From the NCBI GenBank assembly GCA_965207695.1, contig CBDBNA010000010.1, positions 31,764 to 95,763 on the forward strand: a DNA stretch of 64,000 nt, written 5' to 3'. The DNA is from Dehalococcoidia bacterium. GTDB lineage: Bacteria; Chloroflexota; Dehalococcoidia; Bin125. Shown here one piece after another: positions 1-54,693 of this stretch. The translations under genes were made by a program, and so were the position numbers. A model generated the notes under the pieces. The model was not told where the DNA came from and did no database searches. It was given only the letters and a program-made list of their open reading frames with translations. The first letter of the stretch is position 1. Each line of letters opens with the position of its first letter.

Positions 1-2
1 AG

Positions 3-719: not shown

Positions 720-741
720 CCGGCACACGGCCGATAGGGGG

Positions 742-1182
742 CTAGCCGCCCTCCGCCGCATCCTCGGCGGCGGCTTGGCCGTCGCTGAAGCCCTCCGCGA
801 AGGACGCATCGACCTCCGCCTCGGTCGCCTCCGGGTCGAAGGCGCCGAAGGTCGTGCCGAGCAGCAGCGCCAGCACCACGCCCAGCACGAAGGAGCTGCC
901 CAGCACCACCGATCGACGTCGCAGCACGGACGACGGTTCTGGCGGGGCCTCGGGCAACTCCTCCAGCGAGGCCGCCCCCCCGCCGACCTCGGGCTGCACG
1001 GCGGCGCGCTGGGCCGGCCGGGAGCGACGCGGACGCGGCGCCGGCCCGCCGTCCCCGGAGCGGCGCAGCGCCTCGAAGGAGCGTGCGTCGCCGGGATCCC
1101 ACAGGTAATCCGTGGAGTCCGGCCCCGCTTCGGCCTCGGGCCGGCCCAGGAGCGCGCGCAGTCGCTGCTGCCAGCCCGACAT
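742..1182 (-). CDS. hypothetical small membrane protein
   Basis: Last 146 codons of track ORF 742..1911. ATG at 1182 follows GGGGGAGG. The rest of the long ORF is an antisense shadow of the PTE gene. One hydrophobic helix (VVLGSSFVLGVVLALLLGTTFGAF). No family recognised. Confidence 0.55.
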   Translation of the reverse strand: MSGWQQRLRALLGRPEAEAGPDSTDYLWDPGDARSFEALRRSGDGGPAPRPRRSRPAQRAAVQPEVGGGAASLEELPEAPPEPSSVLRRRSVVLGSSFVLGVVLALLLGTTFGAFDPEATEAEVDASFAEGFSDGQAAAEDAAEGG

Positions 1183-20795: not shown

Positions 20796-20932
20796 GCCGC
20801 ACTCCCGCCCGTTGAACGCGGCGCTCAGTATCGCCCCCGGCCGTGCGCCTGTCGATTGCCGCGCGGGCGACTTCCGCCCCGCCGCCGCCGCCCCGATACT
20901 GGGGCGGCGACGCGGAGGGGGGCCGGATCGCC

Positions 20933-23356
20933 ATGAGCGCTGCGTTCGACGGGCTGCGGGTGGTCGATCTCTCCGACCGACTATCCGGGGCCTGGGCGGC
21001 CCGTCTGTTCGGGGATCTCGGCGCCGACGTCGTCCTCGCGGAGCCGCCGGAGGGCCACGCGCTGCGCCGCGAGCCCCCCTTCCTCGACGACCGCCCGGGG
21101 CCCGAGCGCTCGCTGCTGCACGCCTACGCCAACTGGAACAAGCGCTCCCAGGTCGTGCGGAGCGACGCCGACGCGGCGGGACTCGCCGCCGCCGCCGACG
21201 TCCTCGTCACGACCCAGGTCGCGCCCTGGCCGGCGCCCGTGGCCGCGGCGGTCGCGGCGCTGCCCGGCTCGGGCGTCCACCTGTCGATCACCGCGCACGG
21301 CCTCGAGGGGCCGCTGGCCGCCGCGCCGGGCGACCACCTCACGGCCTGCGCCCGCAGCGGCTGGTCGCACATCACGCGCTACGACGAGGAGCCGCCGCTG
21401 CAACTGCCCGTGCGCCAGACCGGCTACCTGGGCGGCGTGGCCGGCTTCAACGCCGCCGCCGCGGCGCTCTTCCGGCGCACGCAGGGCGGCGGCGGGCTGC
21501 GCGCCGACGTCAGCGAACTCGAGGCCGTCTGCGTCACGACGGCCCCCATCGGCCTCGGGGCGATCTTCTCCGGGCATCCGGAACTCGATTACGGCTGGGG
21601 CGGGCGCAAGCACCGCGGGCAGCCCTCGCAACTGGCCCAGGCCGCCGACGGGCTGATGAACCTCGGCGTCGGCGATTGGGCCCGCTACGCCGACGCGATG
21701 CGCTTCCTGGGGGCGCCCGACCTCGTGGACGACCCCGAGTACGCCCCCCTGCTGGGCCGCCACGGGACCGATCAGACGCGGCTGCGGCTGCGCCTCGGGG
21801 AGGTGATCGCCGACCGGTCCTGCGACGAACTGCTGCACGGGCTGCTCGAGATGCGCTGCATCGCCGGTGTGATGCGCGACATGCCGGCCTTGCGCGGCGA
21901 CGAGCAACTCAACGCGCGACAGTACTTCGTGGCGACCGAGGTCGAGGGGCGGCCGGCGCACGCCCCGGGCCCCATCGCGCGGATGCCGCAGATGCCGTCG
22001 ACCCTGCGCCGGCCCGCCCCCCGCCTCGGCCAGCACGACGGCGAGATCGGCCCGGCGGCGGCGCGACCGCCCCGCCCGGCCCCGTCGGCGGGCGCGGCCC
22101 CGGCCAACCTTCCCCTGGCGGGCGTGCGCGTGCTGGCCTTCACGCAGGCCTGGGCCGGCACCTGGGCGACGGACCAACTCGCCCTGCTGGGAGCGGACGT
22201 CGTGCAGATCGAAGCCCCCACCCGCCCCGACGTCTGGCGCGGCGCCGGGGCGCCCGTCCCCAGGGCGGTGCGGGATCCCGACGTCCGGCAGCACCGGCTG
22301 AACACGAACGCCGGCTACAACACCGTCAACCTCAACAAGCGCTCTCTGACGCTCGACCTGAAGCAGCCCCGCGGGCTGGAGATCTTCTGGCGGCTGCTGC
22401 CCAACTTCGACATCGTCGCCGACAACTTCAGCCCGCACGTGATGCCGAGCTGGGGCATCGACCTGGACACGCTCAACGCCAAACGGCCCGGGATCATCTG
22501 GGCCTCCGTCTCGGGATACGGCGCGACCGGCCCCTTCGCCGAGTACGGCGCGAACGGCGCGACGATCGAGCCGATGGCCGGCCTCTCCTCCATCCACGGC
22601 TACGAGGGCGACCCCGGCGCCAACACCGGCGCGCTGCTCCCCGACCCGGCCACGGGGTATTACTTCGCCGCCGCCATCCTCGGCGCGCTGTGCCGGCGCG
22701 AGCGGGAGGGCGGCCCCATCCGCATCGACGCGGCGATGCAAGAGATCGTCGCGCTGCAGGTCGGCGACGCGGTGCTGGAGTACGAGGCCAACGGCGTCGT
22801 GCGGCGCCCCGGCGGCAACCGGCACCCCCGCCACGCGCCGCACAACTTCTACGCCGCGATGGAGGGCGAGTGGCTGGCGCTGGCCGCCGAGTCGGACGCG
22901 GCGTTCGCCGCGCTCGCCGCGCACATCGGCCGGCCCGAACTGGCGGGGGACGCTCGCTTCGCCACCGAACCGGCGCGCAAGGCCAACGAAGCCGCCCTCG
23001 ACGAGATCGTCGGCGCCTGGTGCGCGGGCCAGGACGCCCGCCGCGCCGAGGCCGAACTGGCGGCGATCGGCGTCTGCGCCGCGCGGGCCGCCCGCCTGAG
23101 CGAGTGCTTCGGGGAGCCCAGCCCGCAGTTCCTCGAGCGTGGCTATCTACAGCGCGTCACGCACCCGGAGTCGGGCACGCACTGGATGCCGCTCGTCCCC
23201 TGGCGCATCGGCGGCGAGGCCATCCCCGCGCCGTCGCCCGCCCCCTGCTTCGGCGAGCACTCGCGCGAGATCCTGGCCCAGGAGCTCGGCCTCGGCGACG
23301 CGGCCTACGAGGAACTCCTCGCGGCCGGCGTCACCGGCGCCGTCCACGACGACTGA
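20933..23356 (+). CDS. tandem-fused double family III CoA-transferase
   Basis: ATG 20933 after GGAGGGGGG. Module 1 starts GLRVVDLSDRLSGAWAARLFGDLGADVV. A Pro/Ala linker follows. Module 2 starts near residue 397 with GVRVLAFTQAWAGTWATDQLALLGADVVQIE. Confidence 0.85.
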   Translation: MSAAFDGLRVVDLSDRLSGAWAARLFGDLGADVVLAEPPEGHALRREPPFLDDRPGPERSLLHAYANWNKRSQVVRSDADAAGLAAAADVLVTTQVAPWPAPVAAAVAALPGSGVHLSITAHGLEGPLAAAPGDHLTACARSGWSHITRYDEEPPLQLPVRQTGYLGGVAGFNAAAAALFRRTQGGGGLRADVSELEAVCVTTAPIGLGAIFSGHPELDYGWGGRKHRGQPSQLAQAADGLMNLGVGDWARYADAMRFLGAPDLVDDPEYAPLLGRHGTDQTRLRLRLGEVIADRSCDELLHGLLEMRCIAGVMRDMPALRGDEQLNARQYFVATEVEGRPAHAPGPIARMPQMPSTLRRPAPRLGQHDGEIGPAAARPPRPAPSAGAAPANLPLAGVRVLAFTQAWAGTWATDQLALLGADVVQIEAPTRPDVWRGAGAPVPRAVRDPDVRQHRLNTNAGYNTVNLNKRSLTLDLKQPRGLEIFWRLLPNFDIVADNFSPHVMPSWGIDLDTLNAKRPGIIWASVSGYGATGPFAEYGANGATIEPMAGLSSIHGYEGDPGANTGALLPDPATGYYFAAAILGALCRREREGGPIRIDAAMQEIVALQVGDAVLEYEANGVVRRPGGNRHPRHAPHNFYAAMEGEWLALAAESDAAFAALAAHIGRPELAGDARFATEPARKANEAALDEIVGAWCAGQDARRAEAELAAIGVCAARAARLSECFGEPSPQFLERGYLQRVTHPESGTHWMPLVPWRIGGEAIPAPSPAPCFGEHSREILAQELGLGDAAYEELLAAGVTGAVHDD

Positions 23357-35301: not shown

Positions 35302-35305
<4 letters not shown>
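34826..35305 (-). CDS. NUDIX hydrolase
   Basis: Nudix box [26 protein letters not shown] 35305 overlaps the upstream stop (ATGA). Confidence 0.85.
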
Positions 35306-36417
<1,112 letters not shown>

Positions 36418-36420
36418 CCC

Positions 36421-36450
36421 TTGACGAACGGATGTGCTAACCGCTATTGT
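36421..36450 (+). promoter_or_regulatory. sigma70-like promoter TTGACG-18 nt-TATTGT
   Basis: Hexamers read directly. The same architecture and downstream box recur at 44808-44836. Confidence 0.5.
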
Positions 36451-36456
36451 CCAGTC

Positions 36457-36665
36457 ATGGCACGCATATCGCGTGTCACAGCAACCCGCCGTCCCGCCCG
36501 CGCGAGCCGACGGGGCCCATGAAAGATCGTGAAAGATCGTGAAAGATCAGGCAAGTTCGTGCAGCTTCCTGCGCCCCAATGCGCCCCCATGCGCCCCCAT
36601 GCACGCCCGTGACCCCACTTGACCGCCCCTGACCTGCCAGGAACCCCAATGACCATGGGGTTTTC
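36457..36665 (+). ncRNA. candidate structured leader or sRNA (copy 1) with C-rich 10-nt periodic body
   Basis: Promoter upstream. Conserved box 36463-36490. Hairpin AACCCCA/TGGGGTT 36642-36662 followed by TTCC. Paralog at 44843-45012. No known RNA family recognised. Confidence 0.35.
36520..36659 (+). repeat. 14 head-to-tail 10-nt units phased on TG(A/C)
   Basis: TGAAAGATCG TGAAAGATCG TGAAAGATCA GGCAAGTTCG TGCAGCTTCC TGCGCCCCAA TGCGCCCCCA TGCGCCCCCA TGCACGCCCG TGACCCCACT TGACCGCCCC TGACCTGCCA GGAACCCCAA TGACCATGGG. Confidence 0.85.
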
Positions 36666-36716
36666 CTCATCGACCGCTCCTCCCGACGCACGGGAGAAAA
36701 AAATCGAGGCCTACAC

Positions 36717-37517
36717 ATGACCACTCTCACCCCCAACCAAACCCCGAATCCCGACCCGAATCCCGAGCCGCAGCCCACGCCCATCGCCGAGCGCGTGTCC
36801 GCCAACCGCTGGCGCGACTCGGCCCGTATCCGGGAGCGCCTCATGAAGGTCGCCGGCCTGCGCCAGCGCGGCCTCAGCCAGACGGCCATCGCCAACCGGC
36901 TCGGCGTCTCCGAAGCCACCGTCTCGCGCGACCTGCGGCGCCTGCATCTCCTCTGGCGTCAGGAGCACGCCCACCTCGCCAACGCCGAGCGCCTGCGCTC
37001 CCTCGCCAGCCTCCGCGAGGCCGAGCGCTTCTGCTGGCGGCAGATCGATTCCCACTATGCGGACGGCGATCGGGTTCCGGAATTGAGCGGCGTCATCAGC
37101 AACCTCACGGGCGTCGCGCGCGAGATCCGCATGCTCCTCAAGCACGCCCGGCCCCCCCAGCCCCACGACTACTGGGGCTACGAGGACCCCATGACCCCGC
37201 TGCGCATGCGCGAAGCGCTGGAGGAACGCTACCAGCCGCCGGACAAGGTCGTCCTCGGTCTGCTGCCCTACGAGGACGACCCGCCCGAGGACGACCCCGA
37301 GCTGGCCGACGACCCCGAACTGGCCGTGTACCGCAAGATCAACACCGGCCTGGCGGATTTGGAACTCGCGGTCGACGCCGACGTCGCTCCCGAGGCATTG
37401 GAGCGCCGCTTGAAGGAGATGAGCAGCCATGTCGCACTCCTGCGCCAGTTGCAGGGCGGCGACGGCGGCGGCGCGAGCCGCAACGGGGTCTCCGTCGGTT
37501 TCGAAGACGATGAGTAG
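36717..37517 (+). CDS. HTH-domain protein (sigma70 region 4 / terminase-small-subunit-like HTH plus acidic tail)
   Basis: ATG 36717 after GAGG. GLSQTAIANRLGVSEATVSRDLRRL helix-turn-helix. High GC3. Acidic DDPPEDDPELADDPEL tail. 266 aa. Confidence 0.7.
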   Translation: MTTLTPNQTPNPDPNPEPQPTPIAERVSANRWRDSARIRERLMKVAGLRQRGLSQTAIANRLGVSEATVSRDLRRLHLLWRQEHAHLANAERLRSLASLREAERFCWRQIDSHYADGDRVPELSGVISNLTGVAREIRMLLKHARPPQPHDYWGYEDPMTPLRMREALEERYQPPDKVVLGLLPYEDDPPEDDPELADDPELAVYRKINTGLADLELAVDADVAPEALERRLKEMSSHVALLRQLQGGDGGGASRNGVSVGFEDDE

Positions 37518-37541
37518 CGCGGCGGGACGAGCCGCGGCCCC

Positions 37542-39056
37542 CTACGTGCGCCGCCGCAGCAAGGGGAACAGGATCACGTCCCGGATCGACTCCGAGTCGG
37601 TCAGCAGCATGACGAGGCGGTCGATGCCCAGGCCCAGGCCGCCGGTGGGCGGCATGCCGTGCTCCAGCGCGACGAGGAAGTCCTCGTCGACCAGTTCCGC
37701 CTCGTCGTCGCCGGCGCGGGCCAGCGCCAGCTGGGCGTCGAAGCGCTCGCGCTGGTCGACCGGGTCGTTGAGTTCGCTGTAGGCGTTGCCGATCTCCCAG
37801 CCGGCGGCGAAGGCCTCGAAGCGCTCCACCAGCGACGGATCGTCCGGGTGCCGCTTGGCCAGCGGCGAGATCTCGACCGGGTAGTCGAGCAGGAAGGTCG
37901 GCTGGATGAGATGGGGCTGCACGGTCGCCGTGACCAGCGCGTCGAGCAGCTTGCCCCAGTTCGCCTGCTCGGGGACGGCGACGCCCTTTTCCCGCAGCAG
38001 CGCCGTCATCGAGGCCGCGTCGCGGTAGTCGAAGAAGTCGACGCCGGCGTACTCCCGCAGGGCGTCGCGCATCGTCAGCCGCCGCCAGGGCGGCGCGAGG
38101 TCGAGCTGCTCGCCGCGGATGCGCACCGAGGTGGCGCCCAGCACCTCCTGCGCGACCGCCGCCACGAGGTCCTCGACCATCCGCGCGACGTCGTGGTAGT
38201 CGGCGTAGGCCTGGTACGACTCGAGCATCGTGAACTCGGGGTTGTGGCGGGTCGAGACGCCCTCGTTGCGGAAGATGCGGCCCAACTCGTAGACGCGGTC
38301 GAGCCCGCCGACGATGAGGCGCTTGAGGTGCAACTCGAGCGCGATGCGCAGGTAGCGGTCCTCGCCGAGCGCGTTGAGGTGGGTCGCGAAGGGGCGCGCC
38401 GCCGCGCCCCCGGCCTCGGCCTGCAGGACCGGCGTCTCGACCTCCAGGAAGCCGCGCGACTCCATGAAGCGCCGCACCGCCGCGACGATGCGCGACCGCT
38501 GCACCAGCACGGCCCGCGAGTCCTCGTTGGCCTGCAGGTCGAGGTAGCGCTGGCGGTAGCGGGCCTCCACGTCCTGCAGGCCGTGGAACTTCTCGGGCGG
38601 CGGCCGCAGCGCCTTGGTCAGCAGCCGCAGCTCCGCCGTATCGACGGACACTTCGCCCGTGCGCGTGCGCAGCATCGCGCCGGCCGCCTCGACGAAGTCG
38701 CCCAGGTCGAGGGAGGCCAGCAGGGCCCAGCCGTCGCCCAGCTGGTTGCGGCGGCACATGAGCTGCACCGCGCCCGAGCCGTCGCGCAGGTCGAGGAAGG
38801 CCAGCTTGCCCAGCCGGCGCAGGTTCGTGATCCGGCCCGCGACCCGCACCGACGGCGCCTCCGCGTCCGCGCCGGCGGCCTCGAACGCCTCGAAGCGCGA
38901 GCGCGCCTCGGCGATGCGCGCCGGCGGTCCGCCGCCCCGCGCGGGGTAGGGATCGACGCCGGCCGCGCGCAGCGCGTCGGCCTTTTCGAGGCGCTGCCGG
39001 CGCAATTCCAGCAGGCGCTCGCTGGGCTGCCCGGGCTGGGGACGATCGTCAGACAT
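37542..39056 (-). CDS. lysS: lysyl-tRNA synthetase (class II)
   Basis: Last 504 codons of the 1196-aa track ORF. ATG 39056. OB-fold N-domain plus class II motifs (YELGRIFRNEGVSTRHNPEFT, GLGLGIDRLVM). Confidence 0.95.
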   Translation of the reverse strand: MSDDRPQPGQPSERLLELRRQRLEKADALRAAGVDPYPARGGGPPARIAEARSRFEAFEAAGADAEAPSVRVAGRITNLRRLGKLAFLDLRDGSGAVQLMCRRNQLGDGWALLASLDLGDFVEAAGAMLRTRTGEVSVDTAELRLLTKALRPPPEKFHGLQDVEARYRQRYLDLQANEDSRAVLVQRSRIVAAVRRFMESRGFLEVETPVLQAEAGGAAARPFATHLNALGEDRYLRIALELHLKRLIVGGLDRVYELGRIFRNEGVSTRHNPEFTMLESYQAYADYHDVARMVEDLVAAVAQEVLGATSVRIRGEQLDLAPPWRRLTMRDALREYAGVDFFDYRDAASMTALLREKGVAVPEQANWGKLLDALVTATVQPHLIQPTFLLDYPVEISPLAKRHPDDPSLVERFEAFAAGWEIGNAYSELNDPVDQRERFDAQLALARAGDDEAELVDEDFLVALEHGMPPTGGLGLGIDRLVMLLTDSESIRDVILFPLLRRRT

Positions 39057-39169
39057 GGGACGCTGCCATGGACCTACCTTGCTCCCCGGCCGCATCGAGC
39101 ACAAGCCCCGCCGGAACGACGACGGGCGCCCCGCGGCGCCCAGGTGCATCGCCGGGGCGAAGCCCGCCG

Positions 39170-39646
39170 TCAGTCGATCGACTCGATGGTCATCTTGATC
39201 TGGCCGGCGGGGGCCGCGACCTCGACGGTGTCGCCGGCGCGGTGGCCCAGCAGCGCCTGCCCCACGGGCGACTCGTCGCTGACGAAGCCGTGCGCCGGGT
39301 CGACCTCGACCGCGCCCACGATGGTGAAGCGCTGCGACTTGCGCCCCATCTTCACCGAGACGGTCGCGCCCACGTGCACGACGTCGGAGGCGCGCGCGCC
39401 CTCCTCGTCGATCAGCGTCGCGTTGGCCAGGATGTCCTCCAGCGTGCGGATGCGCCCTTCGATGAAGGCCTGCTCGTTCTTGGCGCCCTCGTACTCGCCG
39501 TCGGTCTGGGAGCCGGGCGACTCCTCGAGCGTGTCGTGGATCAGCGCCGCGGCCGAGGGGCGCTTGTTGGTGAGCAGGTCGTCGAGTTCGCGGCGCAGGC
39601 GCTCCATCCCTGCCGCGGTCACCGGCATCGGTTTGCGGGCTGCCAT
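39170..39646 (-). CDS. greA: GreA-family transcript cleavage factor homolog (standard length)
   Basis: 158 aa. N-terminal coiled coil (MERLRRELDDL...GRIRTLE) plus C-terminal FKBP-like domain (SPVGQALLGHRAGD). Confidence 0.85.
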   Translation of the reverse strand: MAARKPMPVTAAGMERLRRELDDLLTNKRPSAAALIHDTLEESPGSQTDGEYEGAKNEQAFIEGRIRTLEDILANATLIDEEGARASDVVHVGATVSVKMGRKSQRFTIVGAVEVDPAHGFVSDESPVGQALLGHRAGDTVEVAAPAGQIKMTIESID

Positions 39647-39857
39647 CTGCGGCTCCTCCCCACGATGCAGCGTTCCCGGCGGCCCGCGCGGGCGCGCGCC
39701 GGCGGGAACGGAGCGGGGCGATCACGCCGCGGCGTCGCCGCGTCGGCGTGACGCTCCGCCTGATCGGCTGTTGAGTGCCAGAATTATACCCGAGGCGCGC
39801 CGCGGCCGGGCGGGGCGGTCCGATCGGCCCGGTATGCCGATCCTGAGGCGCCGTCGT

Positions 39858-39884
39858 TGCATAAGATGGCGCTGCATAAGATGG
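39858..39884 (+). promoter_or_regulatory. two identical 12-nt direct repeats TGCATAAGATGG, 15 nt apart, upstream of htrA-like gene
   Basis: 39858-39869 and 39873-39884 are 12/12 identical. Each carries a TAAGAT -10-like hexamer. AT-rich island in a GC-rich spacer. Confidence 0.4.
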
Positions 39885-39950
39885 GGCGGGCGCCGCGGGC
39901 GTTCGCGGGGTGGGCAACCGGACGCGCGGCCCGGTCGTAGCGAGAACGGC

Positions 39951-41066
39951 ATGCGACTCACCATCTTCGCTTCGCTGTTGGTCGGGCTGCTCGCGGGCGT
40001 CGTCGGGGCGCTGGTCGTCACGCTTGCGGTGGGCGGCGACGACGCGGAGACCGAGCAGGCCGTCGCCGCCCTCGAAGCGCACCTCGACCGCATCGCCGGC
40101 GCCCAGGAGCTGGCCGCCGAGGCCGCCGCGCTGCGCGAGGACGTCCAGGGCCTGCTGAATGCCGTCGCGCCCTCGGTGGTCCTGATCACGACGGAGTACG
40201 AGGATACGGCGGGCTCGCGCGGGGCGATCGGCACCGGCGTCGTGCTCGACGACCGGGGCCACGTCGTCACGAACGCGCACGTCGTGCGCGACGCCAGCCG
40301 GATCGAACTGAGCTTCGCCGACGGCAGCATCCGGCTGGCGGAATTCGTGGGCGGCGACAGCCCCTTCACCGACCTGGCCGTGGTGCGCACCGACCCGGCC
40401 GGCCTCGTGCCGGCGCGGTTCGCCTCCTCGAGCGACCTGCGGATCGGGGATCCGGTGCTCGCCTTCGGCAACGCCCTGGGCAACGACGTCTCGCTCACGC
40501 GCGGCGTCGTCAGCAACCCCCGGGCGCGCTTCATCAACGCGGACAGCGAGCGCCACGACTTCATCCAGACCGACGCGCCCGTGAACCCCGGCAACAGCGG
40601 CGGGCCGCTCCTCGCCGACGACGGCTCCGTGGTGGGCATCGTCACCCAGGTCGTCACGCAGACCCGCGACGGGCAGATGGTGCAGGGGGTCGGCTTCGCG
40701 CTGCCCAGCGACCGCGTCCTGCCGGTGGCCGAGCGGATCATCGCGGAGGGCGGCGACTTCCCCCGCCCCGACTTCGGCGTCGTGCGGCAGCGCTCGTTGG
40801 ATGCGTTCGTCGCCGAGCAGTTCGGCGCGCCCGTGGCGGAGGGGGCTCTCCTGATCGAGCTGCTGCGCTCGAGCGTCTTCGCCGACGCCGGCATCCGTCC
40901 AGGCGACGTAATCCTCAGCCTGAACGGCTTCAGCGTCACGCCGGAGACGCCCTACTTCCACGTCCTGCGGCAACTGGAACCGGGGCAGCCCGTGGACGTT
41001 GTCTATGTCGATCAGGACGGCGACGAGCGCGCGGTCGAGGTCGTGCCGGTGCGGCGGCGGCGCTGA
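39951..41066 (+). CDS. HtrA/DegP-family serine protease with PDZ domain
   Basis: C-terminal 371 codons of track ORF 37659..41066. ATG 39951. TM anchor, triad context VVTNAHVV / DLAVV / GNSGGPL, PDZ (GIRPGDVILSLNG). Confidence 0.9.
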   Translation: MRLTIFASLLVGLLAGVVGALVVTLAVGGDDAETEQAVAALEAHLDRIAGAQELAAEAAALREDVQGLLNAVAPSVVLITTEYEDTAGSRGAIGTGVVLDDRGHVVTNAHVVRDASRIELSFADGSIRLAEFVGGDSPFTDLAVVRTDPAGLVPARFASSSDLRIGDPVLAFGNALGNDVSLTRGVVSNPRARFINADSERHDFIQTDAPVNPGNSGGPLLADDGSVVGIVTQVVTQTRDGQMVQGVGFALPSDRVLPVAERIIAEGGDFPRPDFGVVRQRSLDAFVAEQFGAPVAEGALLIELLRSSVFADAGIRPGDVILSLNGFSVTPETPYFHVLRQLEPGQPVDVVYVDQDGDERAVEVVPVRRRR

Positions 41067-41167
41067 TCGTCCGCGCCCGCGCGACCGTTGCCGGTAGGCT
41101 GATCCGGCGGCGGCCGCGCCCTCCACCATCACGGGGCCGCCGCCCCGCGCAGGGACATTAGGACATA

Positions 41168-44750: not shown

Positions 44751-44807
44751 CCGCCCCGCCTCCCTCCAGGGCCTGTTCGCATGGCACGGGAGCTCCGGCG
44801 GGACGGC

Positions 44808-44836
44808 TTGACTCCCCTCATACGATCCGCTAAATT
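44808..44836 (+). promoter_or_regulatory. sigma70-like promoter TTGACT-17 nt-TAAATT
   Basis: Hexamers read directly. Paralog of 36421-36450. Conserved box begins 12 nt after the -10 in both copies. Confidence 0.5.
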
Positions 44837-44842
44837 GAATTC

Positions 44843-45012
44843 AACGACCGCACATCGCGTGTCAGTCAACCCGACCGACGCCCCGCAGACCCGGCTGAGT
44901 GCGTGCAAGCTCGTGACGGATTTCGCTCCCCGATGCTCCCCCATGCGCGCCCATGCCGCCCGATGATTCGCCGTGACCGGTCAAGATCCCGAATGAACCT
45001 GGCGGGTTTCGC
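44843..45012 (+). ncRNA. candidate stand-alone sRNA or protein-binding element (copy 2)
   Basis: Lies between convergent genes, with no downstream CDS. Box 44849-44876. Ten phased 10-nt units. Ends GGGTTTCGCC (copy 1 ends GGGGTTTTCC). Confidence 0.35.
44904..45003 (+). repeat. 10 head-to-tail 10-nt units phased on TG
   Basis: TGCAAGCTCG TGACGGATTT CGCTCCCCGA TGCTCCCCCA TGCGCGCCCA TGCCGCCCGA TGATTCGCCG TGACCGGTCA AGATCCCGAA TGAACCTGGC. Confidence 0.75.
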
Positions 45013-45142
45013 CTCGCCGCCTCCGGCCGGGCGCCCGGCGGACGCGGGAAGAACAAGCACCTTGCGTCTTGGGGCCCAGGATCCCCCTCGGCGCCGGTTT
45101 CCTCGCTCCACGCCGATGCCCCGGCGCCGACGGGGACAGGTC

Positions 45143-47620
45143 CTAGCTCACGACGAAGTTCACCAGCCGGTCGGGCACGTGCACGACCTTGCGCAGCGTC
45201 TTGCCGGCCAGGTGCCGCTGCACGCCGTCCGCGGCGGCGGCCTCCGCCTGCGCGGCCGCCGCGTCGAGCCCGGCGGCCGTCTGCAGCTGGCCCCGCACCT
45301 TGCCGTTCACCTGGACCACCAACGTCACCGTCTCCGACTCGAGCAGGGCCGCGTCGTACGACGGCCAGGACTGGGCGTGCACGGAGTACTCGCGGCCCAG
45401 CTGCTCCCACAGCTCCTCCGCGACGTGGGGGGCGGCCGGCGCCAGGCAGAGCAGCAGCGCCGTCACGGCGTCGTCCCAGGCCGCCCCGTCCACCGGGCCG
45501 CGCTCCGGCTCCTTCGCGAGCGCGTTGGTGAACTCCATCATCGCCGCGAGCATGGTGTTGAAGCGGAACGCCTCGATGTCCTCCGTGACCTTCGCGACCA
45601 TCGCGTGCCGCAGCCGCCCGATACGTTCGGCGCTGTCCGCGTCCGCCGCGCGGTCCGGCTGCAACCGGACCAGCGTCCAGATCCGGTTCAGCCAGCGCGA
45701 GTGCCCCTGGATGCTGGAGTCGTCCCAGTCGCCGCCGCGGTCCCAGGGGCCGAGGAACAGCAGGTACAGGCGCACCGCGTCGGCGCCCAGCTTGGCCACC
45801 CACTCGTCCGGGTTGACGACGTTGCCGCGGCTCTTCGACATCTTCGCGCCGTCTTTGGTGATCGTGCCCTGGTTGAACAGCCGCGTGAACGGCTCATCGA
45901 CCGGCACCAGGCCCATGTCGCGGCAGGCCCGCGTGAAGAAGCGGGCGTAGAGCAGGTGCATCACGGCGTGCTCGGCGCCGCCGGTGTACTGGTCGATGGG
46001 GAGCCACTGCTTCGCCAACTCCGGCGAGATCGGCGCGCTGTCGTTGTGCGGATCGATGTAGCGGAAGAAGTACCACGACGAGCACATGAAGGTGTCCATC
46101 GTGTCCGTCTCGCGGGTGCCCGCTTCGCCGCAGCCCGGACACTCCGCGTTGAGGAAGTCTTCGTTCGTCGCGAGCGGCGACTGGCCCGTGGGCAGGAACT
46201 CCGTCACCTCGGGCAGCAGGACGGGCAGTTGCTCCTCGGGCACCGGCACGGCGCCGCAGGAGGGGCAGTGGATGACCGGGATGGGCGCCCCCCAGTAGCG
46301 CTGCCGGCTGATCAGCCAGTCGCGCAGCCGGTAGTTCACCGACGGCCCGCCCGCTCCCCGCTCCGCGAGCGCCGCCGGGATCGCCTCTTGCGCCTCGGCC
46401 ACCGTGAGCCCGTCGAACGGGCCGGAGTTCACCAGCCGGCCGTCGCCGACGTAGGCCTCCGACAGCGGTGCGCCGTCCCACTCCGGTCCGGCGATGACGA
46501 CCGGGATCTCCAGCCCGTAGTGCTCCGCGAAGGCGAAGTCGCGGTCGTCGTGCGCGGGCACGCCCATGACGGCGCCGTGGCCGTAGCCCAGCAGGACGTA
46601 GTCGGCGATCCAGATGGGGATGCGGGCGCCGGTGAAGGGGTGCAGCGCGTAGGCGCCGGTCGCAACGCCCGTCTTGGGGCGCTCGGTGGACTGCCGCTCG
46701 ATCTCCGACGCGAGGCGCGTGCGCCGGACGTAGTCCTCCACCGCCGCGCGCTGGGCGTCGGTCGTGATCTGCGCCACCAGCGGGTGCTCGGGGGCCAGCG
46801 CCATCGACGTCGTGCCGAAGACCGTATCGGCGCGCGTCGTGAAGACCGTGATCGCGTCGCCGGCCTCGACGGGCGACTCCAGCGGGAAGCGGATCTCCGC
46901 GCCGTCGGAGCGGCCGATCCAGTGGGTCTGCATCGCGCGGATGCGCTCCGGCCACTCGATCTGCGAGAAGTCCAGCAGCTCTTCGGCGTACCGCGTGATG
47001 CGGAAGAACCACTGCTCCAGGTCGCGCATCTCCACGATCGCGTCGCAGCGTTCGCAGTGCCCCACCGCGTCGTCGCCGCGCAGCACCTGTTCGTTCGCGA
47101 GCACCGTCTGGCAGCCCGAGCACCAGTTGGCCGGCGCCATCGCGCGGTAGGCCAGGTCGTGCTTCAGGAGTTGCAGGAACAGCCACTGCGTCCAGCGGTA
47201 GTACTCGGGGTCCGAGGTGATGATCTCCCGCGACCAGTCGAAGCTGGCGCCCATCGTCTTGAGCTGCGCGCGCATCCGATCGACGTTGGCGTAGGTCCAG
47301 CGATGCGGGTGCGTGCCGTCGCGGATGGCGGCGTTCTCGGCCGGCAGCCCGAAGGCGTCGAAGCCGATGGGGAAGAGCACGTTCTTGCCCCGCATGCGCT
47401 GGTAGCGCGCGGCGACGTCGGGCGGGGCGATGGCGAACCAGTGCCCGATGTGCAGGTCCCCGCTGGTGTAGGGGAACATGGTCAGCAGGTAGTAGGGCTC
47501 GCGCGGGTCCGCGTCGGGCGTCTCGTAGAGGCGATCCGCCGCCCAGCGCGTCTGCCACTTCGGCTCGATCGCGGCGGGGTCGTAGCGGTCCGGCGTCGCC
47601 GCCGGCGTCGAACTCGTCAT
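45143..47620 (-). CDS. leuS: leucyl-tRNA synthetase
   Basis: 825 aa. HIGH (GDLHIGHW) and KMSKS (GAKMSKSRGN) motifs. ATG 47620. Confidence 0.95.
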   Translation of the reverse strand: MTSSTPAATPDRYDPAAIEPKWQTRWAADRLYETPDADPREPYYLLTMFPYTSGDLHIGHWFAIAPPDVAARYQRMRGKNVLFPIGFDAFGLPAENAAIRDGTHPHRWTYANVDRMRAQLKTMGASFDWSREIITSDPEYYRWTQWLFLQLLKHDLAYRAMAPANWCSGCQTVLANEQVLRGDDAVGHCERCDAIVEMRDLEQWFFRITRYAEELLDFSQIEWPERIRAMQTHWIGRSDGAEIRFPLESPVEAGDAITVFTTRADTVFGTTSMALAPEHPLVAQITTDAQRAAVEDYVRRTRLASEIERQSTERPKTGVATGAYALHPFTGARIPIWIADYVLLGYGHGAVMGVPAHDDRDFAFAEHYGLEIPVVIAGPEWDGAPLSEAYVGDGRLVNSGPFDGLTVAEAQEAIPAALAERGAGGPSVNYRLRDWLISRQRYWGAPIPVIHCPSCGAVPVPEEQLPVLLPEVTEFLPTGQSPLATNEDFLNAECPGCGEAGTRETDTMDTFMCSSWYFFRYIDPHNDSAPISPELAKQWLPIDQYTGGAEHAVMHLLYARFFTRACRDMGLVPVDEPFTRLFNQGTITKDGAKMSKSRGNVVNPDEWVAKLGADAVRLYLLFLGPWDRGGDWDDSSIQGHSRWLNRIWTLVRLQPDRAADADSAERIGRLRHAMVAKVTEDIEAFRFNTMLAAMMEFTNALAKEPERGPVDGAAWDDAVTALLLCLAPAAPHVAEELWEQLGREYSVHAQSWPSYDAALLESETVTLVVQVNGKVRGQLQTAAGLDAAAAQAEAAAADGVQRHLAGKTLRKVVHVPDRLVNFVVS

Positions 47621-50630: not shown

Positions 50631-52319
50631 TCAGGAGCCGATCAGCCCCTCTTGGGGCATGGTCCAGGGCAGATTGTAGAACGGCGCGAACTGCGGCGCG
50701 CGCGGGATCGGCATCTCACCGAAGGGCACATCGATGATCACCGGCGCCTCGCGTTCCAGCGCCCGCGGAATCAGCGTCTCCAGCTGCACGGGGTCGTCCG
50801 CCCGCATGCCGACCGCCCCGAAGGACTCGGCGAACTTGACGAAGTCCGGGTTGTGCAGGTCGGTCCCGTACGTGCCGCCGAACCCGTCGTCCAGGTCGCG
50901 GGCGACGTTGCCGTAGGAGTCGTTCCTGAAGACCACGGTCACGACGTTGATCCCGTATTGCATCGCCGTGGCGAGTTCGGAGGCGTTGAACATGAACCCG
51001 CCGTCTCCGGCCATGCAGATGACCGGCCGGTCGGGCTGCGCGACCTTCGCGCCCAGGGCGGTCGGGAACGCGTAGCCGAGGTTGAAGGAGTACCCGGAGT
51101 CGATGTAGGTCTTCGGCTGGCTCACCTGGTAGTGGGTGCGCGCGTAGTAGCCGAACTGCGTCACATCCCAGACGATGAACGCGTCCCCCGGGATGCCGCG
51201 TTGCATCGCCTCCAATACGGCGAACTGGGGCTCCTTGAGCCGGATGTCGTAGTAGGCGATGAGGCTGCGGGCCGCGGCGACCGCTTCCGCCGGTGACGGG
51301 CGCTCGTTCGCCCCGGCGTCGATGAGGAACGGGAGCAACGCCTCGATCGTCGCTCTGGCGTCGCCGTGCAGGGGGATGGTGTTGGCCTGCACCCGGGTGA
51401 GGTCGCTGTCGTCGATGTTGATGTTGACCAGCGTGGAGGCCTCGCCGGCCGGATTCCCCAGCGAGAATCGCGCACCGATCCCGATCACGACATCGGCCGC
51501 CTGCATCACCTCGAACAACTGGTTCATCTCCTGCCTCTCGCCCCGGGGGCTGAAGCAGGAGCCGTATGACAGCGGGTGGTCGTCGGGGATGGTTCCCTTC
51601 CCGCCGCTGGACGTAACGACCGGGATATTCGTGGCTTCCGCGAGCTTGACGAGGGACGCCTCCGCGTCCGACCGCGCGACGCCGCCGCCGGCGAGAATGA
51701 CGGGCGTACTGGCCCGCGCGATGATCGCGGCGGCCTCGCGGAGATCGTTCGGGTTGGGCACGATGCGCGGCGCGCGCGCGGGAGTCCGCAATTGGACTTC
51801 CTCCCGCTCCACGCCGGCCTCCGGCGGCATCTCGATCAGAACGGGGCGCGGGCGGCCCGTGCGCATCTGGCGGAACGCTTCGAACACGGCATCCGGAACT
51901 TCGCGGGGTCTGGCGGCCTGCCGCTGCCACTTGGTCACGGAGCGCACCGTGCTGCCTTGGTCGGCGATTTCGTGCACGGCGCCCAGGTTCTTGCCGATCA
52001 GGGCCCGTGGGATCTGCCCCGCAATCAGCAGGACGGGCGTGGAGCGGGAGTAGGCGTTCGTCAGGCCGGCGGCGGTGTTGTATACGCCCGCGCCCGGAAC
52101 GACCAGGGCCACGCCGGGCTTCCCCGACGCGCGCGCATAGCCGTCCGCCATGTAGGTGGTGGCCTGTTCGTGCCGGGTCGTGACCAGGCGGATGCCCGGC
52201 TCTTCCCGCAGCGCGGCGACGATCCCGTAGATCTGGATCCCCGGGATGCCAAAGACGACCTCGACGCCTTCCCCGGCGAGCGACTTGACCAAGGCCTCGC
52301 CGCCGCTCATCACGACCAT
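50631..52319 (-). CDS. thiamine-diphosphate-dependent enzyme (acetolactate-synthase-like)
   Basis: 562 aa. N-terminal Pyr domain (GIPGIQIYGIV) and ThDP motif GDGGFMFN...N. ATG 52319. Confidence 0.85.
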   Translation of the reverse strand: MVVMSGGEALVKSLAGEGVEVVFGIPGIQIYGIVAALREEPGIRLVTTRHEQATTYMADGYARASGKPGVALVVPGAGVYNTAAGLTNAYSRSTPVLLIAGQIPRALIGKNLGAVHEIADQGSTVRSVTKWQRQAARPREVPDAVFEAFRQMRTGRPRPVLIEMPPEAGVEREEVQLRTPARAPRIVPNPNDLREAAAIIARASTPVILAGGGVARSDAEASLVKLAEATNIPVVTSSGGKGTIPDDHPLSYGSCFSPRGERQEMNQLFEVMQAADVVIGIGARFSLGNPAGEASTLVNINIDDSDLTRVQANTIPLHGDARATIEALLPFLIDAGANERPSPAEAVAAARSLIAYYDIRLKEPQFAVLEAMQRGIPGDAFIVWDVTQFGYYARTHYQVSQPKTYIDSGYSFNLGYAFPTALGAKVAQPDRPVICMAGDGGFMFNASELATAMQYGINVVTVVFRNDSYGNVARDLDDGFGGTYGTDLHNPDFVKFAESFGAVGMRADDPVQLETLIPRALEREAPVIIDVPFGEMPIPRAPQFAPFYNLPWTMPQEGLIGS

Positions 52320-52461
52320 GCGTCACCTGCTCCATCCACTGAGCCCGTGCGTGCGCGCGAACGCGGTGGCACGACGGCGCCGACGGCCGTGGGTTCACCG
52401 CGGGGGCGCGACCGGGACTCTCCGAGCCCAGCGCACTCACCGCGCCCAGCCGACCCCGCGA

Positions 52462-52593
52462 TCAAGACAGGCGACCGCGTTGGGCTGGGTGGGGGAAGAG
52501 TTGGGGCGGGCTCGGCCGCGTCAGGTCGACGCCGTCCACGACCGCGCCGATCGTCGGCGTGAGCGGCTCGACCCGGATCTCATCACGCGACAT
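52462..52593 (-). pseudogene. 43-codon stub duplicating the 5' end of the TauD-like gene
   Basis: 52518-52593 equals 50506-50581 (76 nt, 1 synonymous difference). Own RBS GGAGGAGG and ATG 52593. Diverges after codon 25. TGA at 52462. Confidence 0.6.
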
Positions 52594-52695
52594 AGCGGCC
52601 TCCTCCGCCCGGCGGACTTGTTCCGCAGGCTACGACATTGGGACGCGGTGGGGATACGCTGCTCCCGCGACGGCAGTGCTTGGAGGGTATGGACC

Positions 52696-54693
52696 ATGTG
52701 GGGAAGCTCGCGACGGTTGCCGGGAAGCGGTTCGGGTTCGCATCACCGAAGGCAGGGGCCGGGAGGGCGCCCGATCCGGACCGGCTGGTGGACGCTGACG
52801 GCGCTGGCGATCCTGGCGGCGATGTTCGCGGTCGCGTGCCGCGACGACGCCCCCGAGGCGGACGAGGCCGCCGCCCAGGCAGAGGTGGCTGTCACCGAGA
52901 CGGACGTGGAGGCCGCCCTGCCAGACGCGGAGGCCGACCAGTCGGACGCGGAGGCCGACCAGCCGGACCCGGAGGCCTCCCAGCCGGACGTCGTGGCGGA
53001 GTTGCGGGCGAACGCGGCGGCGTTCGAGTACGGCATCGGCACGCCGGGCGGCCGCCTGACGTACGCCACGATCGCGGATCCGCTGACCTTCAATCTCGCC
53101 CTCGCGAACGATGCGGGGTCGGCCTCGTACCTGGGCTACCTGTTCGAGGGGCTGACGGAGATCTCCTGGCTGACGGACGAGGTGGAGCCGGCGCTGGCGG
53201 AGTCGTGGGAGCACTCGGACGACGGGCTCACCTGGACGTTCCACCTGCGCCGCGACGTCACCTGGCACGATGGGGAGCCGTTCACCGCCGCCGACGTGGA
53301 GTTCACGTTCAACCGCATCATCTACAACGACGACATCCCCGCCAATAGTCGCGCGGCCTTCACCTTCCGCTTCCCCGACCCGGAGACCGGGGAGTGGCGC
53401 GAGGCGCCGATGACGGTGACCACCATCGACGACTACACCGTGCAGTACGTGCTGCCGGTGTCCTTCGCGCCGTTCCTGCGCTCCATGGGCCAGGCGATCT
53501 TCCCCAAGCACCTCCTGCAGGAGGCGGTCGACGCCGGCACGTTCAATGAGACGTGGGGGCTCGACACGCCGCCGTCGGAGATCATCGGCACGGGCCCGTT
53601 CACCATCGAGGAGTACGTGCCAGGCGACCACATCACCTTGCGCCGCTACGAGCACTATTGGATGCGGGACGCCGAGGGCAACTCGCTGCCGTACCTGGAC
53701 ACGGTGCACTACCGCATCGTGCCCGACCTCGCCGCGGAACTGGCCGTGTTCCAGTCCGGCGAGGCCGACTATCACGGCGTGCTGGGGGAGGAGTACGCGG
53801 AGCTGGAGGCGCTCCAGGAGGAGGGCAACTTCACGATCTACCGGCGCGGGCCGGCATTCGGGACCACCTTCCTGGCGTTCAACATGAACCCGGGCGCCAA
53901 CGCGGAATCGGGCGCCGCCTACGTCGCGCCGGAGAAGCTGGCCTGGTTCAGCAACGTCGACTTCCGGCGGGCGGTGGCCTACAGCATCGACAAGCAGGCC
54001 ATCATCGCGGACGTGCTGCACGGGCAGGGCTATCCGCAGTGGGCGTCGGTCAGCCCCGCGGCGGGGGATTTCCACAACCCCGACGTGCGCCGCTACGAGT
54101 ACGACCCCGACCAGGCCCGCGCCATCCTCGACGACCTGGGCTGGGTGGACGGCGACGGCGACGGCGTGCGCGAGGATGGCGACGGCAATCCCATCCGCTT
54201 CGCGCTGATCACGAACAGCGGCAACAACGTGCGGGAACAGGTCACCGTGCGCATCCAGCAGGGCCTCGAGGCGATCGGCATCCAGGCCGACTACGAGGCC
54301 GTCGAGTTCGGCGACATGGTGACGGCGCTGGTGAGCACCTACGAGTGGGAGACGCTCGTCGTGGGGTTCACCGGCGGGACGGACCCGTACGGCGGCATCG
54401 TCTTCTGGCACAGCAGCGAGGACCTGCATCTTTGGCATCCCAACCAGGCCGAGCCGGCCACGGACTGGGAGGCGGAGATCGACGACCTGTACGTGCGCGG
54501 CAGCCAGGAATTGGACCGCGCGGAGCGCGTGGCGCTGTACCACCGGGCGCAGGCGATCGCGGCCGAGAACGTGCCCGTCGTCTACACGACGCTGCCGGAG
54601 CGTCTGGGCGCCGTGCGCAACGTCTTCGGCAACACGACGCCGACCCTCTACGGGCTGTGGGATGTGCGCTACCTCTATCGGACCGACGGCTAG
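52696..54693 (+). CDS. ABC transporter substrate-binding lipoprotein, family 5 (peptide/nickel-type)
   Basis: Track ORF 52246..54693 trimmed to ATG 52696, 8 nt after GGAGGG. Lipobox FAVAC. SBP_bac_5-like body (LTWTFHLRRDVTWHDGEPFTAADV). Confidence 0.85.
   Translation: MWGSSRRLPGSGSGSHHRRQGPGGRPIRTGWWTLTALAILAAMFAVACRDDAPEADEAAAQAEVAVTETDVEAALPDAEADQSDAEADQPDPEASQPDVVAELRANAAAFEYGIGTPGGRLTYATIADPLTFNLALANDAGSASYLGYLFEGLTEISWLTDEVEPALAESWEHSDDGLTWTFHLRRDVTWHDGEPFTAADVEFTFNRIIYNDDIPANSRAAFTFRFPDPETGEWREAPMTVTTIDDYTVQYVLPVSFAPFLRSMGQAIFPKHLLQEAVDAGTFNETWGLDTPPSEIIGTGPFTIEEYVPGDHITLRRYEHYWMRDAEGNSLPYLDTVHYRIVPDLAAELAVFQSGEADYHGVLGEEYAELEALQEEGNFTIYRRGPAFGTTFLAFNMNPGANAESGAAYVAPEKLAWFSNVDFRRAVAYSIDKQAIIADVLHGQGYPQWASVSPAAGDFHNPDVRRYEYDPDQARAILDDLGWVDGDGDGVREDGDGNPIRFALITNSGNNVREQVTVRIQQGLEAIGIQADYEAVEFGDMVTALVSTYEWETLVVGFTGGTDPYGGIVFWHSSEDLHLWHPNQAEPATDWEAEIDDLYVRGSQELDRAERVALYHRAQAIAAENVPVVYTTLPERLGAVRNVFGNTTPTLYGLWDVRYLYRTDG

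Follow-up and report, generated by a model that had tools for sequence, protein, structure and literature searches.

The leader of a helix-turn-helix (HTH) gene in a Dehalococcoidia bacterium contains 14 contiguous 10-nt units in strict register, most of which open on UG, set between a sigma70-type promoter and a hairpin. The element was found in a 64,000-nt stretch of contig CBDBNA010000010.1 (assembly GCA_965207695.1), the whole of which is referred to here as the window, and it belongs to a family with no fewer than 20 members, spread over 13 or more assemblies of one high-GC Dehalococcoidia clade. A profile of the element matches the window only twice, at 36417–36718 (copy A, the leader of the HTH gene) and at 44802–45068 (copy B, which leads no gene). 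Its anatomy, its conservation pattern and a constraint on the transcribed strand were read directly from the copies, and together point to an attenuator or a small RNA platform acting at the RNA level rather than to a pure DNA iteron. The reading that we favour, at a probability of about one in three, is that the array is a periodic Rho-loading site within a factor-dependent attenuator ahead of the HTH gene. No leader built on UG phased every 10 nt has been described, and the element is in no curated RNA family.

Copy A and the gene behind it are composed as follows.

36421–36450, plus strand: promoter, with −35 TTGACG (36421–36426), an 18-nt spacer and −10 TATTGT (36445–36450); the predicted start is at about 36457.
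36463–36473, plus strand: box CGCAYATCGCG (CGCATATCGCG in copy A), 12 nt past the −10 and at about +6 to +17 of the predicted transcript.
36474–36519, plus strand: GC-rich 5′ spacer with a local hairpin, from the RNA fold.
36520–36549, plus strand: variable part of the array, 3 × (G)TGAAAGATC, called by Tandem Repeats Finder as 2.9 exact copies.
36550–36569, plus strand: junction units GGCAAGTTCG TGCAGCTTCC with a small hairpin, GCAG-cuuc-CUGC, in which changes on both sides keep the pairing.
36570–36639, plus strand: C-rich part of the array, seven units (5–7 in relatives), 53% C and 20% G, the proposed binding platform.
36640–36664, plus strand: last two units, as hairpin 1 (AACCCCA 36642–36648 / TGGGGTT 36656–36662), and UUUU; the pairing is conserved.
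36680–36703, plus strand: hairpin 2 (CUCCCG-acgca-CGGGAG) and an A-run.
36706–36709: GAGG, ahead of the ATG of the HTH gene at 36717.
36717–37517, plus strand: HTH gene, encoding a protein of 266 residues in which an HTH is joined by a coiled-coil hairpin and an acidic tail; Pfam gives only weak HTH_38/HTH_23 matches.

A sequence-only reading of this DNA had described the array, promoter, box, hairpin, TTCC and ATG, and all of its coordinates and strings proved correct when read again. Twelve of the 14 units at 36520–36659 open with TG(A/C), the other two being GGCAAGTTCG and GGAACCCCAA; the opening three are TGAAAGATC(G/A), and TGCGCCCCCA is present twice. The last two units supply the 5′ arm and loop of hairpin 1, whose TGGGGTT is directly followed by TTCC and whose downstream pyrimidine tract, UUUUCCUCAUC, runs to 36671. 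The array lies at about +63 to +200 of the predicted transcript. To gauge chance, in-phase TG was counted per 140-nt frame on both strands of the whole window. More than 5 of 14 in-phase TG were found in copy A (12) and at about 44844–45053 (8) and nowhere else, whilst 20,000 mononucleotide shuffles of the segment gave a maximum of 6, once. Among fundamental periods, 10 alone gives a strong signal, which period 5 simply contains. The promoter of copy A is the sole sigma70-type match in 35800–37800, where shuffles lead one to expect 0.0. The phased 10-nt array is confirmed. The description of the units as exact holds for copy A; L003, L007, L010 and L015 each carry a single 1-nt register slip.

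Each genome has one copy that leads the HTH gene, and two metagenome-assembled genomes (MAGs) have four copies each, one of leader type and three standing alone. A search with the promoter-box pattern retrieved 11 true copies in five Dehalococcoidia/Chloroflexota MAGs; a hit in a Clostridia MAG in the genome scan (L013) has no array and was rejected as a chance match. The element lies directly upstream of the HTH gene in 9 of 9 fetched contigs that bear a homologue of the protein, and in several of these the HTH gene is again convergent with a lysyl-tRNA synthetase gene, a conserved synteny. In the window the element lies in chromosomal surroundings, with housekeeping genes as neighbours (those for lysyl- and leucyl-tRNA synthetase, rsmD, coaD and purE), and not in a phage or plasmid. 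Only a tRNA elsewhere in the window reaches the gathering threshold in Rfam 15, and at relaxed thresholds over both window copies the best matches (E = 0.04–0.2) are to unrelated families, in keeping with the earlier statement that no known RNA family fits. A scan of public (JGI) metagenomes with the promoter-box pattern gave no member, a scan with an 18-mer of two units gave 40 unrelated hits, mostly low-GC, and a scan of viral contigs gave no member.

Promoter, fixed-distance box, array and hairpin are conserved together as a unit. Of 19 aligned copies, 16 keep TTGAC and every one keeps CCGCTA(-10). In each of the 16 copies measured, the box begins precisely 18 nt after the −10 begins, and its CGC/GCG core is invariant. 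The exception is L005, in which the promoter, box, hairpin 2, start region and HTH gene are kept, and both the array and hairpin 1 are gone. Since the two were lost together while the box, hairpin 2 and the gene stayed, this locus suggests that array and hairpin 1 behave as one dispensable module, as an attenuator would.

A logo of 183 units (122 distinct) reads Y7 C8 R9 U0 G1 M2 (Y, pyrimidine; R, purine; M, A or C), with G1 at 93% and U0 at 80%. At the other positions A and C dominate (A+C ∼77%), and G makes up 3–19% except at position 5. The best-kept base is the G of UG, at 93% overall and 100% within arrays, and TG stays at phase 0 in nearly every copy over 8 to 13 units, up to the hairpin loop. 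Identity at UG and in the filler is 0.92 and 0.78 between orthologous leader copies, 0.91 and 0.57 between leader and stand-alone copies, and 0.86 and 0.41 between units of one array. Because UG identity holds while filler identity falls but the filler stays A/C-rich, the alignments indicate two separate constraints, one on phased UG and one on the composition alone of the transcribed strand. The filler itself varies by unit and by clade: GTGAAAGATC is repeated 0 to 8 times and is replaced in one clade by four copies of GTGCACACTC, and the 3′ part of the arrays holds TGCGCCCCCA, TGACCCCACT and similar units. Arrays have 10 to 17 units, and the distance from box to hairpin, 124 to 207 nt, is always 4–7 modulo 10 (16 copies), so that length changes by whole units.

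These features bear on the proposal that the array is slippage debris, a 10-nt minisatellite that expanded in a dispensable spacer and now decays without function. Whole-unit changes in number between close relatives, the identity of the youngest units within a copy and the existence of a lineage that lives without the array (L005) would all fit. Neutral decay, however, would hit all ten positions alike, whereas UG stands at 0.86–0.93 against 0.41 for a filler that is still A/C-rich. The C-rich units are 74–78% identical between genomes despite HTH proteins at 48–68% identity, and the array persists in the distant relatives L059–L061. The sequence-only reading had itself held that an array absent or unphased in orthologous loci would point to debris; of 15 orthologous HTH leaders, 14 have the array, and have it in phase, which favours function. 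We consider slippage without function highly improbable.

The arrays are unusually poor in structure. That of copy A has a minimum free energy (MFE) of −33.5 kcal/mol, compared with −62.6 ± 10.1 kcal/mol for 140-nt genomic windows, of which 0.5% are less stable, and the arrays in general fold worse than 99.3–99.5% of genomic windows. Hairpin 1 is strongly supported, with 84.8% of cells paired over 16 distinct copies, a level reached by 0 of 500 shuffles. In five stand-alone copies it contains a U:G pair, which works in plus-strand RNA only. It was not called a canonical terminator in a stricter terminator scan because it is followed by only 4 U. The junction hairpin occurs, as read from the sequences, as GCAG/CUGC, GCAA/UUGC, UGCA/UGCA and GCGC/GUGC. 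Hairpin 2 is kept in all leader-type copies, including L005 and L059–L061, and the stand-alone copies have a stem of different sequence there; the 5′ spacer also differs in sequence between the two types. The box extends to a 5-bp hairpin (CCCGC/GCGGG or CACGC/GCGTG) in leader-type copies only and is therefore read as a sequence element, perhaps a 5′ RNA motif or the site at which the HTH protein acts as an operator-binding regulator. An antiterminator, in the sense of a second fold conserved among the copies, was rejected: RNAalifold gives only hairpin 1, a 3-bp box core and weak long-range pairs, and single-sequence fold z-scores were −1.6 and +0.8.

From the composition of the filler we conclude that the constraint is strand-specific, the filler being selected at least at the level of RNA or of a single strand. 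Of the two earlier proposals, that of a ∼210-nt C-rich RNA acting as an attenuating leader or a sponge is the better supported, by the conserved transcription unit, the composition of the filler, the poor folding of the array, the U:G pairs of hairpin 1 and the joint loss in L005. Its detail of a sponge for a G-rich RNA found no support, because it is the phased UG that is conserved and not the C-runs.

The system that the element appears to work most like is a Rho-dependent leader attenuator. In cryo-electron microscopy structures, Rho holds 10 nt of Rho-utilisation (rut) RNA per protomer, 5 bound and 4–5 as linker, with A and C preferred at most positions and a functional length of 60 nt for the hexamer; the connector is at least 10–11 nt long and may be structured, the ligand of the channel is pyrimidine-rich, and a synthetic [AAACCCAAUC]6 functions as a rut site, also in trans (bioRxiv 10.1101/2022.08.29.505764; PMC12360218). 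Rut sites are best predicted from C>G bubbles, scarce secondary structure and YC dimers at regular intervals (PMC6144790). The marks looked for here were a C>G skew over 60–90 nt, little folding and YC about 10–13 nt apart. The leader shares with the attenuators and rut sites of these three sources an unstructured, A/C-rich and G-poor RNA of at least 60 nt with 10 nt per subunit and about six units, YC dimers at regular intervals, a connector that is structured and leads to a pyrimidine tract, and a C>G bubble that runs into the open reading frame (ORF).

Under the Rho reading, RNA polymerase would start at about 36457 and transcribe the 14 units in strict 10-nt register. The last six or so C-rich units (36570–36639, ∼60–70 nt) would form a periodic rut site with one unit per Rho protomer, hairpin 1 would serve as a connector of 21 nt, and the pyrimidine tract UUUUCCUCAUC would feed the central channel. 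Transcription would then end ahead of the HTH start codon unless Rho were limiting or blocked. The UG could contribute through pausing, as the elemental-pause signal is G-10 / Y-1 G+1 (PMC12288461; PMC4457086): phased (R)UG would place this minimal signal at each unit, and a polymerase slowed in this way might let the factor catch up. Rho is a factor that acts at pauses. We infer both Rho as the factor and the pausing role.

Several measurements accord with this scheme. The number of C-rich units before the hairpin is 5–7 in every copy, with a mode of 6, and the purine-rich part varies freely. The C-rich part of copy A lies at the 99.9th percentile of C−G skew among the 60-nt windows of the window and has an MFE of −7.2 kcal/mol, where the background is −22.4 ± 6 kcal/mol. 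For the six-unit segments of all leader-type copies the skew percentile ranges from 96.6 to 99.9 and the MFE from −5 to −12, with the same background. The strongest C>G bubble of the 64 kb is at 36537–36831 and reaches the first 100 nt of the ORF, the codons of a disordered N-terminus. YC occurs in 14/14 units of copy A (10 of these at unit positions 7–8), in 13 or 14 of the 14 units in the pair of leader copies nearest to those of the window, and in no copy in fewer than 64% of the units. The chain of eight YC at exactly 10-nt spacing is the longest in the window, which partly follows from the repeat nature of the array.

Other observations weigh against the Rho reading. It leaves UG, the most conserved feature, unexplained, G being disfavoured in rut sites; natural rut sites have no sequence repeats and no phased motif, whereas here UG recurs every 10 nt and part of the array is purine-rich, as in the GTGAAAGATC units. 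The pause motif falls by geometry at 12 of the 14 units of copy A but is not enriched (14 per 140 nt compared with 10 ± 3.1, the 86th percentile, in a window of 72% G+C); as it is common in this DNA, its mere presence is no evidence, and what speaks for pausing is the phasing. Unlike at rut sites, a hairpin and U-tract follow directly, which could terminate transcription without Rho, and stand-alone copies exist. These lie at only the 53rd to 97.6th skew percentile (L009 53rd, L010 66th), and several have lost the skew (53rd to 91st) and fold better, yet retain the UG register. The match to six units is post hoc, given the range of 5–7. A motif search for rho in the window and the retrieved loci found none, as expected for so little DNA, and a universal Rho leaves the tie to a clade-specific HTH gene unexplained except by descent. 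Because UG, the loss of skew in stand-alone copies and a rho gene are unaccounted for, a TRAP-like binder, a DNA operator, or action at both levels remain serious rivals.

The first of these centres on UG. The Bacillus trp leader contains 11 (G/U)AG triplets that are read by the 11-mer ring of TRAP, and it resembles the present leader in having a fixed-period short motif with free spacers whose repeats reach a terminator element. By analogy, an oligomeric ring or filament protein, possibly the HTH/coiled-coil protein itself, would read one RUGM per subunit, its binding would decide the fate of hairpin 1, and the stand-alone copies would be sponges. UG is 86–93% identical while the filler decays, its phase is kept in several stand-alone copies without C>G skew, and the last two units overlap hairpin 1, which L005 lost together with the array. 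Protein and array are both clade-specific, with one copy always linked to the gene, and the protein has invariant Trp and Arg residues around the HTH and a long helical hairpin to which oligomerisation would be suited. The period, however, is 10 nt rather than the 5–6 nt of TRAP, the motif is RUGM, no TRAP-like gene is linked, and a count that varies from 10 to 17 units is a poor fit to a ring with a set number of subunits. Nor was there a candidate among proteins of known RNA-binding fold, the linked protein having an ordinary three-helix HTH of the DNA-binding type; no antiterminator pairing was found, and the C>G skew and its run into the ORF are unaccounted for. We regard a TRAP-like mechanism as rather unlikely, at lower odds than Rho loading.

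A search of 5.8 billion proteins gave only 12 homologues of the HTH protein, and one of these bears the name of a Chloroflexi MAG. In an AlphaFold2 model it is predicted to have a three-helix HTH at residues 36–77 and long helices at 66–142, beyond which come a disordered acidic linker and then C-terminal helices. The HTH fold is closest to GerE, DeoR and NarL over ∼35 residues. Its recognition helix, VS..T[IV]SRDLRRL, is invariant across clades, and Trp and Arg residues around the HTH are invariant too. PDB sequence search, Foldseek, NCBIfam and PHROGs gave only a generic HTH and no family or structural relative, and no match to Rep, ParB or terminase families was seen. The gene contains in-frame tandem repeats of 12 nt (CCCGAATCCCGA) at 36743–36770, in the C-rich N-terminal codons inside the C>G bubble, and of 18 nt at 37290–37326, in the acidic linker.

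Such a protein could instead polymerise head-to-tail on one face of the DNA helix, with one RTGM per turn. It would stop or slow RNA polymerase beyond the promoter of its own gene, as autoregulation, and beyond about three paralogous promoters, as its regulon. The HTH gene adjoins the array in 14 of 15 orthologous leaders, the period is near the helical repeat and the box-hairpin distance is quantised. Both RTGM and the recognition helix are invariant across clades that differ in filler, and GTGAAAGAT repeats occur in an iteron-like setting on an unrelated high-GC contig. OmpR/PhoB sites and the parC sites of ParR are likewise contiguous direct repeats of 10–11 bp, about one turn, beside the gene for a DNA-binding protein, and proteins of the OmpR and ParR type do bind tandem 10-bp direct repeats in this way. 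Those sites, however, lie at or upstream of promoters or on plasmids and show no strand-composition constraint, whereas this array is chromosomal, transcribed (+63 to +200, off the promoter) and backed by an RNA hairpin. An A/C constraint on the filler of the transcribed strand, without a constraint on its sequence, is not predicted by contacts to double-stranded DNA, and a period of 10.0 rather than 10.5 would accumulate a drift of ∼240 degrees over 14 units. The stand-alone copies have strong promoters and U:G hairpins, L005 has the gene, promoter and box but no array, and the box at its fixed distance is the better operator candidate. We judge a DNA operator array unlikely, somewhat more so than a TRAP-like binder. 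The earlier idea of an iteron, centromere-like or pac-like array is weakened by the chromosomal housekeeping context; the part of it that could still stand is binding by the adjacent HTH protein, in view of the invariant recognition helix and RTGM.

The remaining copies lead no gene. Copy B has these parts.

44802–45068, plus strand: copy B, a stand-alone paralogue (nhmmer E = 3e-45; 75% column identity to copy A).
44808–44813, plus strand: −35 TTGACT.
44831–44836, plus strand: −10 TAAATT.
44849–44859, plus strand: box.
44904–45003, plus strand: ten-unit array.
∼44988–45006, plus strand: hairpin 1, then UUU.
∼45034–45048, plus strand: hairpin 2, carrying an A-run.

TG opens 8 of its 10 units, in the same register as in copy A. 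As copy B lies between a plus-strand ORF ending at 44750 and a convergent leucyl-tRNA synthetase gene (45143–47620), it has no gene to lead. It is orthologous to L009 and L011, all three adjoining the leucyl-tRNA synthetase gene, and stand-alone copies in general retain full promoters and sit at orthologous places between MAGs. They look like old duplications of the leader and the first HTH codons, since their 3′ portion aligns with the start of the HTH gene. A tail, CUUGCAUCUUGAGGCCC..GACCCCCCUCCGCGCCGG, is conserved after their A-run (45060–45143 in the window, and in L009 and L011) and aligns with the HTH start region. Behind this tail, the orthologues linked to leucyl-tRNA synthetase have a GCGCCGG...CCGGCGC stem abutting the stop codon of the convergent gene, and a 25-codon TTG ORF of equal length is open in copy B (window region 45060–45143) and in the L009 and L011 orthologues.

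If Rho loading is the function, the stand-alone copies (44802–45068 in the window) would make the same RNA without a gene; they could stop transcription before the convergent gene, or could be decoys or trans-acting ligands of the same factor. In an extended form of the Rho reading, which we think improbable, the array would be a molecular ruler with one Rho protomer per repeat, and the stand-alone RNAs would be trans ligands of Rho (sponge or activator) that set genome-wide termination, read out by the HTH leader.

The stand-alone copies can also be taken as a family of base-pairing small RNAs (sRNAs), with C-rich seeds (GCUCCCC, CCCCCA) that pair with G-rich Shine-Dalgarno regions and a register that is a trace of seed multiplication. 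Each has a promoter to itself and ends in a hairpin resembling a terminator, and the two MAGs sampled hold about three apiece; some fold better than leader copies, and GCUCC(C), read directly, recurs in them, at times in the loop of a local helix. In these respects (several paralogues per genome, C-rich motifs, own promoter and terminator) they resemble the C-rich sRNAs 6C, RsaE/RoxS, LhrC and CcsR. Those, however, carry their C-motifs in hairpin loops and have no register, and there is no Rfam match here. Moreover, the conserved feature is UG and not the C-runs, units such as GTGAAAGATC and GTGCACACTC are purine-rich and do not look like seeds, and copy A is a leader fused to an ORF. A base-pairing role thus ranks below both protein-binding alternatives and appears doubtful.

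Three further systems invite comparison. ToxI repeats are ∼36 nt (34–45 nt) long, fold into pseudoknots and are cut by the toxin. The order of promoter, tandem repeats, terminator and protein gene is the same in these type III antitoxin arrays; here, in contrast to ToxIN, the units are 10 nt and unstructured, and the downstream gene encodes an HTH protein and not a ToxN/AbiEii-type endoribonuclease. CsrB and RsmZ sponges present many GGA in hairpin loops, whereas the present units lack GGA and are unstructured. Tandem repeats of constant length and variable sequence, of 20–21 and 52 nt, are known in Firmicutes, and their authors weigh protein polymerisation on DNA against small RNAs (PMC8161180). 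In both cases length is kept over sequence, but those repeats differ in length and taxa and have no defined promoter, hairpin or linked gene.

A number of other explanations were tried and rejected. In many copies a leaderless small ORF could open on an ATG that coincides with the predicted start and close at the first TGA in the array; L001, L002, the L004 group and copy B lack this ATG, and in L010 and L015 the frame is broken by 1-nt indels. A minus-strand ORF at 36444–36656 (70 amino acids) would not keep its frame, since the arrays, with 10 to 17 units, do not vary in multiples of three. Pairing of GAAAGAUCGUGA with the 3′ end of 16S rRNA lacks the central GGAGG, and no comparable sequence is seen in the GTGCACACTC clade. 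Individual copies show DnaA boxes, GATC/SeqA clusters, A-tract curvature or the potential for a G-quadruplex or i-motif, but none of these is conserved from clade to clade. CRISPR, TIGR and box C/D-like arrays were dismissed on the grounds that the units are too short and the associated genes absent.

Some units recur outside the family. In two metagenome contigs (L048 and L052, 64–66% G+C), six or more GTGAAAGAT, one of them inverted, are unevenly spaced about an AT-rich stretch; these repeats look like replication-origin iterons unrelated to the family, so that the same 9-mer can be a DNA site. The low-GC contigs L056 and L017 (from one metagenome series, 43–46% G+C), L021, L024, L049 and L029 carry short exact GTGAAAGATC tandems, of up to five units in L056, with no promoter-box or hairpin context.

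The surroundings of the element vary between relatives. In L060 an RVT_1 reverse-transcriptase gene (1–837, minus strand) lies ∼660 nt upstream of the HTH leader, and the spacer of L059 and L060 (∼1100–1260) holds repeat copies containing CCTGAGC(C/T)TGTCGAAG. In L001 (397–1701) and L057 (1–608), a gene for an AAA_15/AAA_21/DUF3696 ATPase lies divergently upstream of the element along with two short ORFs, of 63 and 93 amino acids; a 63-residue ORF is called at the corresponding place in L002, and the gene set is absent from the window. Divergent from copy A in the window, and starting 4 nt upstream of its −35, is a minus-strand ORF (35302–36417) whose first residues are lipoprotein-signal-like. 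Within it, 28 near-perfect CTCAGG hexamers (35959–36126) encode a long Pro-Glu repeat on the coding strand, and its only Pfam match, PF05887 (acidic repeat), is below cutoff. The lysyl-tRNA synthetase ORF (37542–41132, minus strand) is 1196 residues long as read, with Pfam domains at 762–1191 only, orthologues of 504–505 residues, and a G+C content at third codon positions of 0.81 against ∼0.95 in its neighbours. The reading is probably over-extended, and 39.1–41.1 kb may hold other genes.

Elsewhere in the window are four family III CoA-transferase genes, one of them (20843–23356) with a duplicated domain, and genes for a phosphotriesterase, a TauD dioxygenase, a luciferase-like monooxygenase and two Amidohydro_2 proteins (positions include 2283–3467, 9315–10925 and 57417–58670), a gene content that we take to resemble that of aerobic, SAR202-like Chloroflexota. 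Tandem repeats of 21 and 42 nt at 52853–52990 fall in the N-terminal part, ahead of the domain, of a family 5 solute-binding protein gene (52246–54693) and probably encode an acidic low-complexity linker.

The host clade is narrow and uncultured, and the function of the element is inferred. Rut sites have long resisted clear definition, and a natural RNA in which the 10-nt, six-protomer geometry can be read off would, if the Rho reading is true, be a clean model for how Rho or a ring factor reads RNA, and it would mean that a rut-type site can evolve through simple unit duplication. Were the ruler form also true, no earlier RNA regulator of Rho would have had repeats matched to the ring, and the element would be comparable to CsrB for CsrA and to 6S RNA for RNA polymerase. 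If the partner is not Rho, it would be an RNA- or DNA-binding oligomer with a 10-nt step in poorly studied, uncultured Chloroflexota. In either case, a fixed-period dinucleotide, a filler constrained in composition only and length changes by whole units give a signature by which similar platforms may be screened for.

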